64,000 nucleotides of DNA from an uncultured Gemmatimonadaceae bacterium (GCA_963740355.1 CAVUDW010000003.1:1184001-1248000), one strand, 5' to 3'; shown: positions 23,684 through 32,849, counted from the stretch's first letter. Numbers and translations: made by a program. Notes: generated from the letters alone by a model not told the origin.

Positions 23684-24361
23684 TCAGGCCGCCCCCACCT
23701 TGTCGAGTCGGAACGCCCAGCGAACCCATGGCAATGCACGAATCGTGTCGCGCACTTCCTCGCCCGGTTGTTCGTCGATCTCGATCACCATGAACGCGTC
23801 ACCACCCCGCTGTTTCCGCGTCAGGCGGAGCGTCGCGATATTCAACTCAGCCTCGGCCAGCATGGTCGCGATGGCGGCGACACTGCCCTTCACATCTTCG
23901 GCCACCAGCACGATGGTGTGCAGGTTGCCGGTGACTTCGACAGGGTAGCCGTCGATTTCCGTGACCAACACGCGACCGGCGCCGAGTGACGATCCCTGCA
24001 TCACCGCGGTGCGGTTGTTACGCGTGACTGTGATGCGCACGGTGTTCGGGTGCACCGTGCTGTCTTCGCCGAGGGTCGTCTTCTCGAAGGTGTAGTCGAG
24101 GCCTTCACGCTCCATGATGTCGAGCGCGGTGCGGAGGCGTTCGTCGTCGGGCTTGAAGCCCATCAGGCCCCCGACGATGGCCTTGTCGGTGCCGTGGCCT
24201 TCACCGGTGCGGGCGAAGGAGCCATGGAGTTCGATACGCGCCGACTGCGGCGTCCCACCCACGAGGCAGCGGGCGAGGAGCCCGAGGCGGCAGGCGCCGG
24301 CCGTGTGCGAGGACGAGGGGCCGACCATGACGGGCCCGATGATGTCGAGGAGAGAGACCAT
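23684..24361 (-). CDS. sdaAB: L-serine dehydratase beta subunit (with ACT domain)
   Basis: DIIGPVMVGPSSSHTAGA, GSFARTGEGHGTD, HPNTV. Confidence 0.95.
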   Translation of the reverse strand: MVSLLDIIGPVMVGPSSSHTAGACRLGLLARCLVGGTPQSARIELHGSFARTGEGHGTDKAIVGGLMGFKPDDERLRTALDIMEREGLDYTFEKTTLGEDSTVHPNTVRITVTRNNRTAVMQGSSLGAGRVLVTEIDGYPVEVTGNLHTIVLVAEDVKGSVAAIATMLAEAELNIATLRLTRKQRGGDAFMVIEIDEQPGEEVRDTIRALPWVRWAFRLDKVGAA

Positions 24362-24535
24362 GGGGAAAAGCTATGCCGGTGCGCACCACGCGGTCACGGT
24401 GTAACGTCGCCTGATGACGCTGGTGTGACAGGGGAGCGCAGGTTGTTGGTGGGGTCTGGCGGCGCAGCCTGACCAGGAGGGTGCGGGAGGCTTCGGAGCC
24501 GAGCCGGTGGCCGGCACCATCCCGGGGGACGGCAA

Positions 24536-27500
24536 ATGTCCGATCGTTCGAGGAGTATCGCGCGGGTGCAGTTCCTCGGGGCTCAGCGGATCGAGATCGG
24601 GAGCGACGAGGTGACCCCGGAAGCCGAGCGGCTGTTCGGCATGATCGTGCGCCTTAGCGTGCCGCTGGGGCGGATCACGTCACGGCAGACGATGATGGAC
24701 ACATTGTGGCCTGGCGCGGGCGATGCGAACGCGCGGCACAACCTTCGGCAGACGGTCTACAAGGCACGCGAGATTGGGCTGGTGGTGGAGTCAGGCGAGG
24801 ACGGCCTGCGGCTCGATCCCCGTCACTGGTCGTGCGACTGGGACGATCCAGTCGGCGACGTGGGTGGCGAGTGGCTGCCTAACTACGTGCCGGAGTTTTC
24901 CGAGGAGCTGGCGGCCTGGATCACGGCGCAGCGGGTGGGCGTGCACGCCCTGATCCGACCGCGGATCATCCGGTCGTTGCAGACGGCGCGTTCGGCCGGC
25001 GATCTGGCGATTGCGGATCGATATGCGGCGCAGCTGCTGCGGATCGACGAGTTGAACGAGGAGGCGACGCTCACGCGGGCGGAGTTGCTGGCGATGCAGG
25101 GCGCGAAGATCGACGCGCTTCGGCTACTGGATGCGTATCTGGCCGAGATCGGGCGTCTGGGGTCGGGCAAGGATGCGGCGTTGCCGGCGCAGTTGCTGCG
25201 GCGCCGGATCGCCGAGAAGCTGCCGACGGTGGCGTACCAGAGTGGCGCCAAGCATCACGGGCCGTTGGTCGGCCGGCAGCGCGAGTCGAAGAAGCTGTTG
25301 GCGGGGCTCTTCGATGCGCGGGCGGGGAGGGGCCAGGCTTTCCTGCTTCAGGGTGGTGATGGCAGCGGCAAGACGCGGCTGTTGTACGAGACGCGGAAGT
25401 CGGCGGCGTTGCAGGGGATGCAGGTGTTCGAGATGGCGTGTGACAGCACGCCGAGTGCGATGCCGTTTGCGGCGATGCGTTCGTTGGTGGCGCGGATGCT
25501 GACCTATCCGGGTGCGCTGGGTATCGCGCCGGAAGCGATGGGCGTGTTGCGGGCGTGGCTGTCGAGCAACGAGTTCGCACCGGACGATTGTCCGCTGGCC
25601 GAGATCGAGGACTTGCTGGCGTCGGTGTCGGAGGAGACGCCGTTGTTGTTGCTGGTGGAGCATGCGGAGCGCATCGATGCCGAGTCGTTGGGGCGGTTGG
25701 ACCGGGTGTATCGGAAGGGGGTGCTACGGCATCACATGATGGTGCTGACGACGTCGACGCAGGCGACGCCGACGGAGAGTCCGGTGGAGGTGCAGTGGGT
25801 GGAGCGGGTGGCGTTGCGGCCAATGTCGACAGTTGACGTTCGCGCGATTGTGTCCGCCTATGCCGCAGCCGAGCAACGTCGTGCGACTCAAGACGAAATC
25901 GCGTGCGCCGCCGTGTTCGCAGAGGGTGTTCCGATGTTTGGAATTGAAATGCTCGGGCTAATACTCGATTCTGGATCACCAGACCTTATTCCATGGCGCG
26001 TTCAAATCGCGGTCGATCGGTCGCTTCGAGAGCTGAATGAACTTCAGTGGCGCATACTCTCGCTCTGTAGCGCTCTCAGAAAGAGCGCTCGCCAAGCACT
26101 GGTAGCAGCGGCACTCCATCTGCAGGAGAACGAATTCGCTGCGGCTGCTTGATGGCCTCGAGGATCCCGGCTACCTGCAGTACGAAGACGGGATTTTGAA
26201 ATCTTACTTGGCTCATGGCAGACAAAGCCAGCGAACGAGTTCGCGCCAATGTACTACGGAGCGACGCTTTGTCAGCCGCGAATGAGATGTTGCGCGATGC
26301 GGCTGGATTCACGAATCCCGCAGATTTCTACACGTGCATTCGCCTTACTGTAGTGGCCGGTGAGGAGGGGCGGGCAAAGTTTCTCCTAGACTCGGAGGTT
26401 GGCGCGCTCGTGCGAAGGGACACCGCGCTGGAATCGTGTTTGAGCTGGGCCAGCTGCGAAAGCTAGCACAATCGCGCGCCTTTAGCGTTCTCGTTGATGA
26501 AGTAATTGCGCAGATCCGCGGAGGAGCCGAGAGCAAACGCCCTAGTCGGCGGGCGGCAAGCTACCGCTCCAAGCCTTCATCGCTACCATCGATATCTGAT
26601 GCGTCCGTTGAGGTAGAGTATACGCTGTCATCAACGCAGTCCCTGGTCGCCACACTCAGTGAGTCTCGAAATCCCAATTCTGCACCCGAGAGACGCCTTG
26701 CAGAGGCGGTGATGGCTCTCTTTGTGGCGTCGAATCTGGCGACAAAGCGGGCTGACGGCGTCCTTTCAGCCGTAAACGCGGTCAGGTATTCGAAGGATGT
26801 GAATCCATTTGACATACACCGGGCGGATCTGATTTTCTTCGCCTCAGTGGGGCTTCGAGAGAAAGCGCTAGAGGCCGCGCATCAACTATCCGCTAAGTCT
26901 CGTACCGTGCACGACGTTCAGCTGGCGTGCAAGGGACTGAGAAATGCGGCGGAGGTGCACTCGACTTTCGGCGATGAAAGGCAGCTCATTCGCTACTTCT
27001 TGAGTCGCGTAGCCTAGCGGCAACATTGAAGTATCACGCACAAATCGTGTGGGCCGACATCCGCCTTGCGGATCTCCGATTGGAAGCAATGGATCTTGAG
27101 GGGGCGAATGCTTATCTGACGAGTGCGATGATATCGTCGATAGCATACCGCCTATAGCACCGCTGCTCTCGCGGACCTCAATGTCGCAGACAGTGCTGGG
27201 AAGGTGCTAATGCGCGGCGCATCGGCCAGGCGACAGAAGGCCGCGCGAATTGTAGCAAGAACTCGGTGCACGCCTCTAGAACCGGCACTGCACTCTGGAC
27301 TCGTTCTCGGTGTCAGACTCGCGACACACGCAGGACCTTTCGCCAGAGACACAGCTCGGGACTATTCGTTGCTTAAGGAGAGTATTGCCAGCAGACCATT
27401 CTATCCGAACGAACAGTTGAGCCTCGCTGCGTTGGTGCTCTACAGAGCACTTCCGCGGGCACCAAGAAGTCTCAAAATTCGTGCGTGCGCAGCTTCCGCG

Positions 27501-27600
27501 CATTGAAAGCACCGGGAGGATCGCATTCTTGAGTTCTCCTTTCGCGGACGTAGAGAAAATGTCGCGAAAGACTCGCACCATAAAGCACCCCTATTTTGAC
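24536..27600 (+). pseudogene. BTAD/SARP-like activator + P-loop (STAND-like) ATPase + helical C-terminal sensor; multiply frameshifted after 26150 (pseudogene or assembly error; 3' end approximate)
   Basis: LWPGAGDANARHNLRQTVY, IDELNEEA (BTAD-like), LVGRQRE, Walker A GGDGSGKT, LLLLVEHAERID; helical coding continues in ORFs 26215, 26436 and 27204. Confidence 0.7.
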
Positions 27601-27601
27601 T

Positions 27602-28909
27602 CTATCCGTTTGCGAGCAGTGAAAGAGTTGGTTCTGCTGCAAAATCGTCCTCATGCGAAGCGCAGGCAAGCCTCAATACTGTGTCGATTGTTCCTGCAGC
27701 GAATAGCGTTGCCAACATCTCGGGATCAAACTGAATGCCACTCATCCGCAACATCTCTGCGCGAATCTTATCCGCTGCAAGGCCTCGACGGTACGGTCGG
27801 TCACTCGCCATGGCGTCGATCGTGTCTGCAATCGCAATGATCCGAGCAAACACTGGGGATTGCTTCACCCGCCAACGCATCTGGATAGCCAGAACCGTCC
27901 CATGCTTCGTGGTGATGCCGAATCGGATCTACCGTATCACGCAGGTGCGAAGAAATTCGAACGAGTTCGGCGCCCTTGATCGGATGCGACTCCATGATCG
28001 CGCGTTCTTCGGCTGTGAGCTTTCCCGGCTTCGCCAGAATCGGAGCGAACACTTCGTGAATCTTCCCTACATCGTGCAGAAGACCAGCCACTGCAAGCGT
28101 TCAACCTGCTTCGCCGAAAGCGAGAGTGCCTGACCCATCATCGTTGAATACTGCGAGACACGCCTAGAGTGACCCGAAGTATAGGGATCACGAGCTTCAA
28201 GCGTCGTAACGGTGAGCTCGAGAAGCTCTTTGTTCGAAACGTGCAGCTCTTCATTCGTGCTGTTCAGCTGACGAACGATTAGCACCAACGCCGCCGCAGC
28301 AGACGTCGCAAGCACGCCGAACTTCACGTACACCGTTACGAAGACGAAGACGAACGGCAAGGCAACGAGATCGAAGAAAAATCCACGCTGCCCTTCCTTC
28401 CAAATCGAAATGTATTTCGTCTGCGTCTCTGCGCTCACCACTGCTGCAACCGCAGCTGAATTGGTGAGGACGAAGGCTAGGAATGCAGCGAGTACCGAAA
28501 GTGGACGTATATCACCACCGTAAACAGCTCCCGCCGCACCCGTCAGCCGATAGGCTACGACGGAGAAGGAAAGTGTGACGGCATGCTGGGCAACGTTGAA
28601 AACAAGCTTTGCTGTCTCCTTCCGCATCAGCAGCTGTGCCAACAGAATGACACCTACGGCGCTGAGTACAGAGACCCAAGAAGGGACGAGAACGACACTG
28701 GCTAGGAACGTGACGAATGTTGCCTGGCCATTCACGCGATCGGACAGCGCGTACGGCATAAGAGCGCCAAAGACAGAAAACACCGCAAAGGCGATTGCGG
28801 CGTTGAGCTCGACTGGATCTACGCGTGGTTCGAAAGCGTAGAGAGCAACAAGACTCCCCGCTCCGACCAGCGCGGTCAGCGTTACTATCGTCTTCGTGGC
28901 CTTTCGCAA
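27602..28909 (-). pseudogene. Membrane-anchored HD-GYP phosphodiesterase, split by two frameshifts (about 28090 and 27880)
   Basis: Multi-TM N-terminus, then ARDPYTSGHSRRV / AGLLHDVGKI, HHEAWDGSGYP / ARIIAIADTIDAMASDRPYR across three overlapping ORFs. Confidence 0.85.
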
Positions 28910-28944
28910 GCAGATCCCCCCGCCTCGGACTTCAAACTAGTTCT

Positions 28945-29013
28945 TCAGTTCCACGTCTGCGTACCGCCAAAAGCTGCGGCGATAAGACCTGCGAATGCGG
29001 CCCAGAAACCCAT
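28945..29013 (-). CDS. 22-aa hydrophobic peptide MGFWAAFAGLIAAAFGGTQTWN
   Basis: Manual translation from ATG 29013 to TGA 28945; perfect SD GGAGGTGA (29027-29020) 6 nt upstream; stop lies 35 nt before the HD-GYP start. Confidence 0.75.
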   Translation of the reverse strand: MGFWAAFAGLIAAAFGGTQTWN

Positions 29014-29161
29014 CTTGCGTCACCTCCCTTCCGTCGTCAGTCCTCCGCTCTCGCGTCAGACTGCCTCCATCGGTGGGCTCCGCTCGTACTACTGGCCGTA
29101 CCCGCTCAACTCCGCTCTGCCGAGGACGGGGGGATTACTAATTCTGCTTTCCACTAACACA

Positions 29162-29177
29162 CGCGTCTTTCGTGCCA
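29162..29177 (-). promoter_or_regulatory. Putative sigma54 (-24/-12) promoter for the peptide/HD-GYP operon
   Basis: TGGCACGAAAGACGCG: exact TGGCACG and GG-N10-GC spacing; the -12 box is ACGC rather than TTGC. Confidence 0.55.
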
Positions 29178-29272
29178 GTGACCGACAGTTTGTCTTTCCC
29201 GCCGCCCGCGGTGACTTCGTCACCACCACACGCAACGCCCGCCGGTCACCTGCAAGGCCTGACCACCCTCCC

Positions 29273-30112
29273 CTACCGGTCAGCCTCCAACCACCGATTC
29301 GTTGCGTCCAACACTGCCAGTGCGCCCGCCACCTCGGCACTGTCGCGGATCACACAACTCCCGCTCAATAGCACCGATTGACGCCCCTGCCGCACCGTCA
29401 CACCAACCAACACGAACTCCGTCCCGAAGGCGTCCACCCGCTGCGCACCCGCCAGCGCCAGGCTCCCCGCCTTCCCTTCCGCAAATGCAATCGCGAGGAC
29501 CGTCGCCCGAGCCGCCAGCTCCAACCGCGCGGCCTCAGTCTCCAGCCCTTCCGCTTCTCCCTCAAAGGACTCCTCACCCCGCCGCAGCGTCACGCGACAT
29601 CCCAGGCCGCTGCGACTCCGCTTCACCTCGACGTCGTCGAAGATGTACCGGCGCACCCCGCTCACCTCGGGCGCGCTGACCGGCGTCACAGCCGGCGCGG
29701 CGATACCAGGGGCAGGCGCAGGGGCAGCCATCGGAATCGGCGCCGGACCAGCGATCGCGTCGACCGCCGATGGCGTCAGACGAATCCGCGGAGCATCCAC
29801 CGTCGTCGCGACACTGATCTTCCGGTGGTCGACACGCATGCCGAGATGCGCCAGCAACGCACTCTCGATGTTGCGCACGGTCTGCTTCGGACCGATTTCG
29901 ACCGACGTGAGTACATGAATGGCATCGACCTCGCCGCTGGGCGACGCCTCGATGCGCACGCTCACCACACCAGGCAACGTGCCGAGCAACTCCTCAGCGC
30001 GCGCGATGTGAATCGCGGAGGGACGGCTCGAACCGCCGCCAGCGCCGGCTGCTGTTGTGAAGACAGACACGGTCACGTTCTTTCGCGGGTGGAAGTGCAA
30101 AAGAGCGAACAC
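29273..30112 (-). CDS. Hypothetical protein (start uncertain, possibly GTG at 30076 or 30070)
   Basis: Two globular-looking domains (IHVLTS..PKQTVRNIESALLAHLGMRVDHRKISVA; LLSGSC..ALAVLDATNRWL) joined by a Pro/Ala linker. Confidence 0.75.
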   Translation of the reverse strand: MFALLHFHPRKNVTVSVFTTAAGAGGGSSRPSAIHIARAEELLGTLPGVVSVRIEASPSGEVDAIHVLTSVEIGPKQTVRNIESALLAHLGMRVDHRKISVATTVDAPRIRLTPSAVDAIAGPAPIPMAAPAPAPGIAAPAVTPVSAPEVSGVRRYIFDDVEVKRSRSGLGCRVTLRRGEESFEGEAEGLETEAARLELAARATVLAIAFAEGKAGSLALAGAQRVDAFGTEFVLVGVTVRQGRQSVLLSGSCVIRDSAEVAGALAVLDATNRWLEADR

Positions 30113-30185
30113 AAGCTCCGGCAGAGGCTGCGAATCAGCCCCGACCGTTAATCGAAGTGCAAGCTGGACCGCAGGTTAGCATAAA

Positions 30186-31724
30186 TCAAGAGTCAGCGTC
30201 CTCAACCGTTTCGCCACCCTCGATTTCCCTGATCTTCCGGTACAGCGTCCGCTCCCCGATTCCCAACAATTCTGCTGCCCGCCGACGATTGCCGCGCGTC
30301 TCCCGCAACGTCGCCTCGATCACGGCCCGCTCGATCTGTGCCATCGTCATCCCCGGCACCACTTCGACCGAATTGGGCAACCGCGCACTCATCGGCTCAA
30401 CCGCACCGCCCGCCACCAACGCCTCAGGCACTGCCGCCGCCGGAGACTGGTCCAGACGACGACGCAAGTCTTCGACCTGAACCTTCAACTCGACCAGATT
30501 CCGCAAGATGAACTCGAGCTCAGCCGCACCGAGCACCTGATTCGTATCAGGAGTGTTCCGATTGCCCGGCACCGGCGGCAACCGCACCGGCAACATCCGT
30601 GTCAGCCCGTCCCGGATCTGCGGTGGAATGTCCGCCACGCCGATCTCATGGCCGGGCGATAACACCACCATGCTCTCGATCAGGTTACGCAGCTCTCGAA
30701 CATTGCCCGGCCACGAGTATCGCGCCAGCATCTCCATGGCCTCGGCCGAGATGCCATGGAACGCCTTGTCATGCCGGCGCGAAAATTCGGCGATGAAACG
30801 CCGCACCAGCACCGGGATGTCCGACTTCCGCTCGCGGAGCGGCGGCAGGTACATGCTGAGGACGTTGAGCCGGTAATAGAGATCCGACCGGAACGCCCCC
30901 TCCTCCACCAGCTCGCGCAACGGCCGGTTGGTGGCCGCGATGACACGCACGTTCACTGGAATGCTGGTCACGCCACCAACACGCGTGACTTCACGCTCCT
31001 CCAGCACCCGCAGCAACTTCACCTGCGTCGAGGGCGGGATGTCACCGATCTCGTCCAGAAAAAGAGTGCCGCCGTCCGCCAGCTCGAAGCGCCCCAGTCG
31101 ACGCTCGGCGGCGCCTGTGAACGCGCCCTTCTCATGGCCGAAGAGCTCGCTCTCGAGGAGCGTCTCGGCCAGCGCGCCGACGTTCACGCCGATGAACGGC
31201 TTGTTCCGGCGAGGGCCGAGGCGATGGATGCCGCGCGCCACCAGCTCCTTGCCCGTGCCGCTCTCGCCCTCGATCAACACCGTGCTCGATACCGGCGCGA
31301 TCTGCTCGATCTTCACCAGGACTTCGCGCAACGCCTCGGTGTCGCCGCTGAGCCCCGTCTCCTGACTCAGGCGGCGGCGCTCGAGAAGGCGGCGAACGAC
31401 GGGCGCCACATCTTCCGGAACGACCGGCTTCACCAGAACATCAGCGTAGCCAATGGTGCGCAGCCGTTCGCGCATCCCTGGCTCGTCGACGTCGGCCAAG
31501 CCGACGACCGGTACCCCGGCCCACAGTTCCTCGCGCACCACCTGCACGTTGCCGGTATCGAGCAGCGCCCCCGTGATCACCACCACGTCCGGCTCGAAGC
31601 GCTCGAGCGAACCGCGGATGTCATCCAGCGGCGACACCATTTCCGTGGTGATGCCCGAATGCTCGAGCAGCGCGTTGAGACGCACGGCCGGCTCGACGTC
31701 GGTGAGCGTGATGAGAACCTTCAC
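30186..31724 (-). CDS. Sigma54-dependent enhancer-binding activator (pseudo-REC, AAA+, Fis HTH)
   Basis: GESGTGKE, ESELFGHEKGAFTGA, LFLDEIG, WPGNVREL, GNRRRAAELLGIGERTLYRK. Confidence 0.95.
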   Translation of the reverse strand: MKVLITLTDVEPAVRLNALLEHSGITTEMVSPLDDIRGSLERFEPDVVVITGALLDTGNVQVVREELWAGVPVVGLADVDEPGMRERLRTIGYADVLVKPVVPEDVAPVVRRLLERRRLSQETGLSGDTEALREVLVKIEQIAPVSSTVLIEGESGTGKELVARGIHRLGPRRNKPFIGVNVGALAETLLESELFGHEKGAFTGAAERRLGRFELADGGTLFLDEIGDIPPSTQVKLLRVLEEREVTRVGGVTSIPVNVRVIAATNRPLRELVEEGAFRSDLYYRLNVLSMYLPPLRERKSDIPVLVRRFIAEFSRRHDKAFHGISAEAMEMLARYSWPGNVRELRNLIESMVVLSPGHEIGVADIPPQIRDGLTRMLPVRLPPVPGNRNTPDTNQVLGAAELEFILRNLVELKVQVEDLRRRLDQSPAAAVPEALVAGGAVEPMSARLPNSVEVVPGMTMAQIERAVIEATLRETRGNRRRAAELLGIGERTLYRKIREIEGGETVEDADS

Positions 31725-31733
31725 GTCGCGCGC

Positions 31734-32849
31734 CTACTTCTTCGCTGAGCCGTTCGGCCAGAACGGGAGCGCAGCCACCGTGGCCGCGACGCGACTTCCG
31801 CGAATCTCGACTTCAAAGCAGGTGCCGGGCTTCGCCAGTTCGGTCGGCAGATAGCAGGTGCCGATCGGGATCCCGACGCTCGGCCCAACTGTTCCGCTGC
31901 ACACGACGCCACTCGCCTCGCCATCGATGAACACCGGCATGCCGTGGCGCGGGACATTGCGCACCGGCAACGTGAAGCCAACCAACTTGCGCGGAATGCC
32001 CGCCATCTTCTGCGACACCAGCGCCTCACGTCCGACAAAGCGCTCCTTGGCGGTGAGCTTCACCAACCACGCCAGGTTCGCCTCGTATGGCGTGACGGTA
32101 TCATCGATGTCGTTGCCGTAGAGCGCCATGCCCATCTCGAGACGCAGTGTGTCGCGCGCACCGAGACCAGCCGGCGTCACGTCACCCGCCGACATCAGCG
32201 CGGCCCACATCGCCGGTGCATCGGTGTCGTTGAAATAGAGTTCGAAGCCATCTTCGCCGGTGTAGCCGGTGCGACTGATGATGACGTTCTCGATGCCAGC
32301 GACGGTGCCAACTGTGAAGTGGTAGTACTTGATCGACGCCAGGTCGACATCCGTGTGGCGCGCGAGGATGGCGGGGGCAAGTGGTCCCTGCAACGCCAGC
32401 AACGCGGTCTTGCCGCTCACATCCTCGAGCTGCGCGTCGAAGGTCAGCAATCGCGGTTCGATGTGCGCCCAATCCTTCGCGATGTTGGACGCATTGACCA
32501 CCAGCATCAGGTGATCCTCGAACCGATAGACGAGGCAATCATCCTCGATCGTTCCGCGTTCATTGCAGAAGGTCGAATAGTGCGCCTGCCCAACCGCCAG
32601 CTTGGAGACGTCGTTGGTGGTGACGTAGTTGACGAAATCGACGGCGCCCGGCCCGGTGACGAGAAACTCGCCCATGTGGCTGACGTCGAAGAGGCCACAG
32701 GCCTTGCGCACCGCATGGTGCTCCGCGGTGATGCCGCCTGGGTATTGCACCGGCATCTCGAACCCAGCGAACGGCACGATCTTGGCGCCAAGGGCAACGT
32801 GGGTGTCGTAGAGCGCGGTGCGCTGGAGCGTGGAGTCTGGGGCGGACAT
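31734..32849 (-). CDS. gcvT: Glycine cleavage system aminomethyltransferase T
   Basis: [45 protein letters not shown]. Confidence 0.97.

Follow-up and report, generated by a model that had tools for sequence, protein, structure and literature searches.

Gene content of the locus

Within a 64,000-nucleotide (nt) stretch of the genome of an uncultured Gemmatimonadaceae bacterium (GCA_963740355.1, CAVUDW010000003.1:1184001-1248000; hereafter the window), a gene for a membrane HD-GYP protein lies downstream of a very short open reading frame (micro-ORF) and of a gene for a 279-residue protein, and converges on a gene for a large regulator. The initial annotation had drawn this locus as a sigma54-dependent activator, a hypothetical gene, a promoter, a tiny peptide gene, the HD-GYP gene and the facing regulator. 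All of these parts are present at the positions given for them; the HD-GYP gene and the regulator, however, are each not one open frame in the assembly. These frameshifts had been missed, as had a structured leader RNA around the peptide ORF. While the anatomy of the leader is shown by sequence comparison and predicted folds, its function is something that we infer: from the comparative evidence presented below, we consider it fairly probable that the leader micro-ORF gates HD-GYP synthesis within a conserved Gemmatimonadota module. The positions of all features are collected in Table 1.

A micro-ORF with its own ribosome site precedes the HD-GYP gene

The micro-ORF is separated from the HD-GYP gene by only 35 nt, and the arrangement is not peculiar to the window. 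We examined 74 loci, 59 of which hold the enzyme gene, and a micro-ORF was called behind a strong ribosome site in 58 of these 59. The initial annotation had staked its proposal on such an upstream peptide ORF being found at orthologous HD-GYP loci, and in this respect it was borne out. One of the 58 loci (L180, from genome G185) also supplies one of the 37 rows of the larger alignment and one of the 52 leaders discussed below, and no claim stands on it alone.

The 48 distinct peptides have 14-30 residues, mostly 22-23, and the micro-ORF is exactly 22 codons long in all 14 sequences of the genus. Tryptophan is the last residue in 13 peptides and the next to last in 28, with seven having it in neither position, and across classes the C-terminus follows the pattern G-[GT]-x-x-W or D-x-x-x-W. 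The stop codons are mixed (TGA 27, TAG 16, TAA 15). Within the genus, the pooled ratio of nonsynonymous to synonymous polymorphism (pN/pS) is 0.54 in frame, versus 0.91 and 1.66 in the other frames; the constraint on the peptide is weak but real. Judged comparatively, the micro-ORF is a real gene. The peptide also appears to be selected for itself, since its hydrophobic or amphipathic character and its Trp-ended C-terminus (G-[GT]-x-x-W) are conserved.

A structured leader RNA encloses the micro-ORF

The most conserved DNA between the gene for the 279-residue protein and the enzyme gene is not the promoter, but a leader of approximately 125 nt. The window leader folds with a predicted energy of -101.9 kcal/mol (z -3.24), a stability reached by none of 200 shuffles, and three helices, which we call P1, P2 and P3, are present in both its minimum-energy fold and its centroid. 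Conservation was assessed on two alignments, A1 (20 rows) and A4 (37 rows). RNAalifold recovered only the invariant helix from A1, in which distant rows were misaligned; A4 performed better, with P1 still unalignable.

P1 is a long-range helix whose arms enclose the micro-ORF, the 3' arm beginning about -3 to +17 nt from the micro-ORF stop. The sequences of the two arms differ between clades yet remain complementary. In 19 of 20 loci, the z-score of the P1 duplex is -2.1 or below. Across 52 leaders, cognate arms pair with a mean energy of -28.4 kcal/mol versus -21.5 kcal/mol for swapped arms, and the observed sum is reached in none of 2000 permutations, a count that overstates independence, as related sequences share arms. 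P2 is predicted to pair the ribosome-site block of the micro-ORF, GGGAGGTGACGC, with an anti-site, GCGGAGCC(A/C)ACC, around two purine-purine loops. The core of this ribosome site (GG, GGT) is invariant in both alignments, and the remainder is invariant or nearly so. For the hairpin P3, five of six pairs are changed on both sides, in 6-20 of the 37 sequences of A4, and the helix also appears in per-sequence folds.

The position of the micro-ORF stop at the foot of P1 raises the alternative that the micro-ORF is a ribosome-arrest sensor of the TnaC/ErmCL type, in which a ribosome held at the Trp-proximal stop would keep P1 open. Tryptophan at or next to the C-terminus in 41 of the 48 peptides would suit such a device, and every peptide is short enough for the ribosomal exit tunnel. 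Nevertheless, we regard arrest as unlikely: the mixed stop codons imply no release-factor specificity, the peptide sequences are highly variable, and none of the peptides contains an arrest motif familiar to us.

The leader additionally carries (N)AG triplets in runs, which are spaced by 2-3 nt and form two clusters. There are six such repeats in the window leader and a mean of 5.9 units per leader across the 52 leaders, versus 1.1 in shuffles. The repeats are transcribed, because the P1 arm upstream of them co-varies with the arm downstream. The GAGCGGAGC block within the second cluster is invariant in A1 and has a single exception among the rows of A4. We also considered whether the GAGCGG repeats might serve the SARP-like regulator as an operator in the DNA, and rejected this, as their spacing ranges from about 8 to 35 nt across clades and the repeats are transcribed. 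A simple pattern search found one copy of the element in the window's genome. With Rfam 15, window positions 24000-32000 gave nothing beyond a chance microRNA match (E 0.27), and 18 further loci gave no match at E up to 5.

One candidate reader of the leader is CsrA, which would titrate or read the element with no dedicated factor being involved. The genome encodes one CsrA homologue (71.3 bits; G000:C2:175467-175622, locus L212), and GGA occurs within the GAGCGGAGC block and within the ribosome site. In many clades, however, the first repeats are GAGCGAAG and lack GGA, and the predicted fold pairs the two strongest GGA sites with each other, whereas CsrA sites would generally lie in hairpin loops. 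We find this explanation improbable.

Table 1. Features of the HD-GYP locus, in window positions
Feature	Position	Strand	Description
gcvT	31734-32849	minus	
Sigma54-dependent activator gene	30186-31724	minus	Pfam Sigma54_activat 232 bits, HTH_8 51.4 bits; N-terminal domain without family match
Gene for 279-residue protein	29273-30112	minus	Family unknown; directly adjoins leader
Sigma54-type -24/-12 element	29177-29163	minus	TGGCACG-N4-ACGC, read from sequence
P1 5' arm	29120-29135	minus	C-run; upstream of repeats
Repeat cluster A	29105-29117	minus	GAG-NN-GAG-NN-GAG
Repeat cluster B	29072-29091	minus	UAG-NNN-GAG-NN-GAG; last two units form the P2 anti-ribosome-site strand and include the GAGCGGAGC block
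Hairpin P3	29037-29066	minus	
Micro-ORF ribosome site	29017-29028	minus	GGGAGGTGACGC; 3' strand of P2
Micro-ORF	29013-28945	minus	22 codons (MGFWAAFAGLIAAAFGGTQTWN, stop TGA); preceded by very strong ribosome site GGGAGGTGA
P1 3' arm	28914-28928	minus	G-run; includes HD-GYP ribosome site
HD-GYP gene, membrane type	28909-27602	minus	HD_5; TTG start at 28909-28907
Convergent regulator gene, STAND-type	24536-27519	plus	AAA_16 54.8 bits; first piece is a 538-residue ORF, 24536-26152
Serine-dehydratase beta/ACT subunit gene	23684-24361	minus	Upstream of regulator start
Lower-GC stretch	~25800-29000		GC 0.53-0.59, versus ~0.62-0.70 in flanks

Proteins encoded by the module

By its domain and motifs, the HD-GYP gene product is a predicted phosphodiesterase of cyclic di-GMP (c-di-GMP). 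HD_5 scores 56.1 and 22.6 bits on the window fragments and 116.3 bits on an intact orthologue, and the window translations contain both the HD motif (LLHDVGK) and the GYP motif (HHEAWDGSGYP). The catalytic domain is strongly constrained (pN/pS 0.10). A MASE9-type N-terminus can be assigned to the window enzyme through orthology. In the Pfam search, MASE9 (PF20972, cut-off 24.3 bits) was matched neither by the window piece nor by the genus orthologue L018; the orthologues that pass the threshold (L027 with 27.5 and L032 with 30.4 bits) all belong to other genera of the family or to a sister family, and L207 scores 22.5 bits, below the cut-off.

The gene for the 279-residue protein is the gene most tightly linked to the leader, and its product matched no Pfam or NCBIfam family. 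The structural model (mean predicted local distance difference test score 77.9) shows a small alpha-beta-beta-alpha-beta N-domain joined through a disordered Pro/Ala linker to a C-domain of two beta-beta-beta-alpha units. In Foldseek, this C-domain resembles the regulatory domain of LeuA/citramalate synthase (E 1.7e-4 to 8e-4; template modelling score 0.58 on a 121-residue target). The module is flanked by the serine-dehydratase beta/ACT subunit gene and by gcvT, both of glycine/serine metabolism, a possible metabolic link to the amino-acid-binding-like domain of the 279-residue protein.

Orthologues of the convergent regulator have the layout winged helix-turn-helix (wHTH), BTAD, AAA_16 and a helical/TPR region. 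The AAA_16 match of the window regulator identifies it as a P-loop STAND ATPase, and the winged helix and BTAD were not detected in this copy at E 0.01. The regulator of L203 matches Trans_reg_C (26.7 bits, cut-off 26.2) and BTAD (43.9 bits), and that of L032 matches BTAD (33.7 bits) and TPR_12 (69.9 bits); the fragmented C-terminus of the window copy has no Pfam match.

Upstream of the core, the sigma54-dependent activator has no Response_reg match in residues 1-120 at E 0.01, that is, no detected phospho-receiver input domain. The window's genome encodes rpoN (sigma54). The sigma54-type element is preceded, at a distance of about 35 nt, by a perfect palindrome, GGTGAC-N3-GTCACC (29210-29224), which most sequences of the genus retain; the palindrome is a possible activator site, a function we infer from its sequence and position.

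A resident module of Gemmatimonadota

The order gcvT, activator, 279-residue protein gene, micro-ORF, HD-GYP gene, convergent regulator and dehydratase subunit is repeated in 13 loci of the same genus and, with minor losses at contig ends, in seven loci that represent further genera and families within the order. In other classes, a core remains that consists of the 279-residue protein gene, the leader with its micro-ORF and the HD-GYP gene, and a convergent regulator of about 1100 residues is kept in four of the six other-class loci that have room to show it. Linkage of the regulator with the HD-GYP gene, on which the initial annotation also depended, thus holds in the genus, in relatives within the family and order, and in these four loci.

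The 279-residue protein was found in 230 of the 301 genomes sampled from the phylum, and its nearest clusters in the Atlas are hypothetical proteins that are commonest in Gemmatimonadota. A DNA pattern scan says little on distribution: among the matches listed, 80 loci were fetched, of which six contain the real module and the others are chance. The true matches among those listed bear Gemmatimonadaceae, Gemmatimonadales or Gemmatimonadetes titles, and the six true loci among the matches listed comprise four Gemmatimonadota-type metagenome-assembled genomes and two short contigs binned as Propylenella and Acidobacteriaceae. On these two contigs (L110, 4969 nt, Propylenella-binned; L097, 2932 nt, Acidobacteriaceae-binned) the leader, micro-ORF and HD-GYP gene are present, in the former together with a convergent regulator. 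Either the two contigs were binned wrongly, or the module has spread outside the phylum.

The gene upstream of the core varies. In one class it encodes a GGDEF protein with Fe-S domains, and in another a 485-residue protein of no known kind. The sigma54 activator is a feature of this order only, because the gene in its position differs in other classes. In the other-class locus L203 (9749-11707, minus strand), a 652-residue protein that combines a GGDEF domain (138.7 bits) with 4Fe-4S/Fe-hydrogenase-like domains is encoded upstream of the 279-residue protein gene; here a predicted c-di-GMP synthase sits beside the module in place of the sigma54 activator. In a distant family (L207, 7338-8684, plus strand), the place of the convergent regulator is taken by a B12-binding radical SAM gene, which lies immediately 3' of the HD-GYP gene in the same orientation.

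The lower GC of the core had been taken in the initial annotation as a sign of foreign DNA, a view the orthologues contradict. The GC of the HD-GYP ORF is 0.52-0.62, below that of its neighbors, in 20 of 20 orthologous loci. The mean GC at third codon positions (GC3) is 0.59 in the membrane part, 0.57 in the catalytic part and 0.61 in the C-terminal half of the regulator, versus 0.77-0.87 in the flanks; in one locus of another class (L205) this GC3 contrast is absent. Low GC is an old trait shared by these genes, because all 20 orthologous loci show it and it extends past the putative specificity parts to the strongly conserved catalytic domain. The locus is best read as a chromosomal module for c-di-GMP control that is conserved in Gemmatimonadota, as opposed to a mobile cassette.

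Alleles, co-variation and the peptide-pheromone proposal

Conservation among congeners is uneven along the module. Amino acid identities are 83-99% for the flanking proteins, 72-95% for the 279-residue protein, 73-96% for the catalytic domain and 55-89% for the N-terminal half of the regulator, with much lower minima for the membrane domain (40-97%) and for the C-terminal half of the regulator (34-66%). Allelic groups of the peptide and membrane domain cut across species: one identical peptide occurs in four species whose membrane domains are 84-97% alike, and a second peptide in two others whose membrane domains are 95% identical. In one species of this second pair, the N-terminal half of the regulator is 86-89% identical to the first group, and its C-terminal half only 35-38%. 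The tree of the 279-residue protein supports the four-species clade (Shimodaira-Hasegawa-like approximate likelihood ratio test 97.7), and the membrane-domain data reject it (approximately unbiased test, p 0.005), in a test that is post hoc, as the group was chosen after the identity tables had been seen. Synonymous sites are near saturation in all segments, and allele ages are not datable. The alleles are thus mosaic between species, and the sensor end of the regulator is hypervariable. The swappable cassette envisaged in the initial annotation survives insofar as peptide and membrane-domain alleles cross species lines, but the module is resident and its low GC is not foreign.

Two readings of the peptide as a signal can be weighed against these data. 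First, the peptide may be a trans-acting micro-protein that binds the MASE9 domain, as a subunit or as an intramembrane ligand, a role compatible with gating by the micro-ORF. Co-variation of the peptide with the HD-GYP membrane domain had been predicted, and it is found: the distances are correlated with a Mantel r of 0.82, and of 0.78 once the 279-residue protein is partialled out (10-14 species). The allelic groups described above, the hydrophobic or amphipathic character of the peptide and its aromatic C-terminus point the same way, and the authors of the MASE9 description propose ligand binding within the membrane (10.1101/2021.11.05.467447). However, the two genes lie so close together that linkage alone can give such a correlation, and the link between peptide and membrane domain could perhaps be mere adjacency. 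Additionally, an obligatory membrane-spanning helix is unlikely because 31 of the 48 peptides carry a charged core residue and the shortest, of only 14-16 residues, are too short for a membrane span. We consider a trans-acting role possible, if rather less probable than its absence.

Second, the peptide could be a secreted pheromone that is sensed by the TPR end of the regulator, in a quorum or kin-recognition system resembling RRNPP or ComRS, as the initial annotation had suggested. In favor of this reading, the peptide is short and hydrophobic, has an aromatic C-terminus and is encoded close to a TPR-bearing regulator. The regulator is linked to the module across classes, its C-terminus is hypervariable against well-conserved flanks, and the alleles are mosaic between species. 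The predicted co-variation of peptide and regulator C-terminus fails, however: the correlation (r 0.31) falls to 0.07 (p 0.33) in the partial test on the same 10-14 species, once shared history is removed, and one species has the same peptide as three others, to which its regulator C-terminus is only 36-38% identical. Among the module genes that we annotated, none was identified as an exporter, a processing protease or an oligopeptide importer (the rest of the genome was not searched), and the peptide ORF is buried in an RNA structure that would also control the next gene. A pheromone of this kind is very unlikely.

Frameshifts in the assembled copy

In the assembly, the HD-GYP gene consists of three overlapping ORFs (28909-28067, 28091-27801 and 27880-27602), with frame changes near 28091-28093 and near 27855, where the alignment to orthologues also switches frame; the 12 same-genus orthologues are open frames of 442-448 residues. 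Regulator homology passes through frames 2, 1, 3, 2, 3 and 1 across 24536-27519 with most of 11 orthologue queries, and this copy contains at least five shifts plus one stop within a piece. The orthologues, from 11 congeners, are single ORFs of 1016-1042 residues. Both large genes together hold at least seven frameshifts. Elsewhere in the window long ORFs are intact, and 26152-29273 is the sole gap of more than 3 kb in coding-like ORFs.

A check against short reads used contigs from the single public run that shares words with the stretch (share 0.12), which leave 26387-27905 uncovered; this was a DNA run, and no RNA run was listed for the stretch. These contigs have one base fewer at 26147 and one extra after 28093 (depths 2 and 5.6), removing both of the frameshifts that they cover. 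Homology resumes in the next frame after 26147, and the HD fragments are 94-99% identical to 10 of the 12 same-genus orthologues and 88% and 91% identical to the other two. The frameshifts are probably errors of the assembly consensus rather than decay, because the short reads remove two of two covered shifts, homology continues past 26147 and the HD fragments stay 94-99% identical to most congeners. The copy in the window is probably intact in the cell. The errors may cluster here because the source sample contained several alleles of a hypervariable locus, which is only a guess.

The alternative is that the two genes form a decaying pseudogene pair in this strain, with low GC as a mark of the decay. 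The frame changes, at least seven in number, all fall within about 2 kb (26147-28093), with the remaining ~60 kb of the window clean, and in genome G296 the HD-GYP gene is likewise split and the micro-ORF lacks its usual stop. Yet fragments so similar to their congeners are unlike a pseudogene old enough to gather seven indels, the intact orthologues share the low GC, and the two shifts within reach of the short-read contigs are absent from them. We judge decay to be an unlikely explanation. The locus from genome G296 (L213, G296:C2:132401-135400) is a second damaged-looking copy from the same family: its micro-ORF, at 386-478, is extended to 30 codons, and its HD-GYP gene lies in two overlapping ORFs, 514-879 and 543-1814.

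A possible mechanism for control of HD-GYP synthesis

Gating by the micro-ORF would work as follows. The mRNA would begin at the sigma54-type promoter and contain the structured leader, the micro-ORF and the membrane HD-GYP gene. By default, synthesis would be off, with both ribosome sites paired, that of the micro-ORF in P2 and that of the enzyme in P1. A factor engaging the repeats, whether protein or ligand, would free the micro-ORF ribosome site. A ribosome reaching the micro-ORF stop would then cover the 3' arm of P1, melt the helix and expose the weak TTG start of the enzyme, whose synthesis would thereby depend on translation of the micro-ORF. The peptide might in addition act in trans, on the membrane domain of the enzyme, or in cis, inside the ribosome. 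Two hallmarks of unmasking by an upstream ORF can be recognized here: a short ORF immediately upstream of the enzyme gene, with a ribosome site to itself, and, by prediction and covariation only, a downstream ribosome site within a conserved helix that a translating ribosome enters.

The identity of the factor is a matter for speculation, and one such speculation, drawn from the structural model and from the constant position of the gene beside the leader, is that the 279-residue protein is the reader of the repeats. Taken further, an oligomer of this protein could bind to the six (N)AG repeats, much as TRAP and HutP bind to theirs, and free the micro-ORF site, and the Trp-ended peptide could both unmask the HD-GYP start in cis and dock onto MASE9 in trans, with peptide and membrane alleles diversifying together like pherotypes. 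We regard the conjunction of all these steps as a long shot.

Several points weigh against gating of HD-GYP synthesis by the micro-ORF. A pure coupling device needs no conserved peptide, and the model is incomplete in this respect. On the side of transcription, the sigma54-type element is not uniformly kept: TGGCACG-N4-nnGC is present in eight of 13 aligned sequences of the genus, only these eight being exact, and in the other-class loci nothing that matches the sigma54 activator of the window was found beside the core. On the side of the RNA, P1 was tested by purpose-written duplex scripts instead of a covariance model, and the arms shared by related sequences inflate its permutation result. 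In four of the 52 leaders the fixed 5' window missed the P1 arm, which left the cognate pairing less stable than the swapped average. P2 is almost invariant, with one of its eight pairs having one compensatory change, and covariation neither supports nor refutes it. Finally, should the frameshifts be real, the module would be dead in this strain.

Relation to known systems

Unmasking of a gene by translation of a short upstream ORF is familiar from the ermC, cat and secM-secA leaders. In Salmonella, mgtQ upstream of mgtB is a case of ORF-dependent unmasking of a sequestered ribosome site (PMC8092293). The locus resembles mgtQ-mgtB in that a very short ORF, itself equipped with a ribosome site, precedes a gene whose own site is closed off by a stem, which translation of the short ORF would be expected to open. 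In contrast to mgtQ-mgtB, the helix is long-range and surrounds the whole ORF, the ribosome site of the ORF itself is predicted to be sequestered too, and there are six (N)AG repeats and a conserved Trp-ended peptide C-terminus. The arrangement is, moreover, conserved phylum-wide, together with the 279-residue protein and the STAND regulator, and is known here from sequence alone.

The fusion of MASE9 to HD-GYP is a described architecture, as set out in 10.1101/2021.11.05.467447. Like these enzymes, the protein studied here has an N-terminal multi-pass membrane domain joined to an HD-GYP domain with both HD and GYP motifs. The upstream micro-ORF and leader RNA set it apart, as neither is mentioned in the accessible part of that account (10.1101/2021.11.05.467447).

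With respect to its repeats, the leader invites comparison with RNAs that are read by dedicated proteins: the Bacillus TRAP leader has 11 (G/U)AG repeats, and HutP has two XAG-rich sites (PMC4027176 and PMC2425495). Analogous to these leaders, (N)AG triplets are separated by short spacers, here in two clusters of about three. Unlike in the TRAP and HutP leaders, the spacers are of 2-3 nt and the last two repeats double as the anti-ribosome-site strand. TRAP (PF02081) and HutP (PF09021) had no matches in the window's genome, which is 94.5% complete, in a search that matched the Bacillus subtilis control.

Large regulators of the SARP/AfsR type combine a wHTH, a BTAD, a P-loop ATPase and TPRs, and the convergent regulator family likewise has these parts in one protein of about 1000-1100 residues. 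It differs from SARP/AfsR in occurring here in Gemmatimonadota, in being convergent to an HD-GYP operon, and in having a C-terminal half that is as little as 34% and at most 66% identical between congeners. Peptide pherotype cassettes, such as agr and ComRS/Rgg-SHP, share with the module a short hydrophobic peptide gene beside sensor genes and allelic forms that cross species. Unlike those cassettes, the module has no export or processing genes identified among its annotated genes and no co-variation between the peptide and the TPR regulator, and its peptide ORF is embedded in a predicted translational control structure. A literature search, with most subscription journals outside its coverage, found no published description of the micro-ORF or of the leader.

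HD-GYP enzymes with membrane sensors are common, and their control is mostly unknown. The locus offers a concrete and testable control logic for one of them, in which a folded leader, a translated micro-gene and a ligand-binding-like protein would act together, and which is conserved in a poorly studied phylum of soil and sediment. It also illustrates that a locus may look like a swappable peptide cassette of foreign origin and yet be a long-established resident of the chromosome, with alleles that recombine between species.

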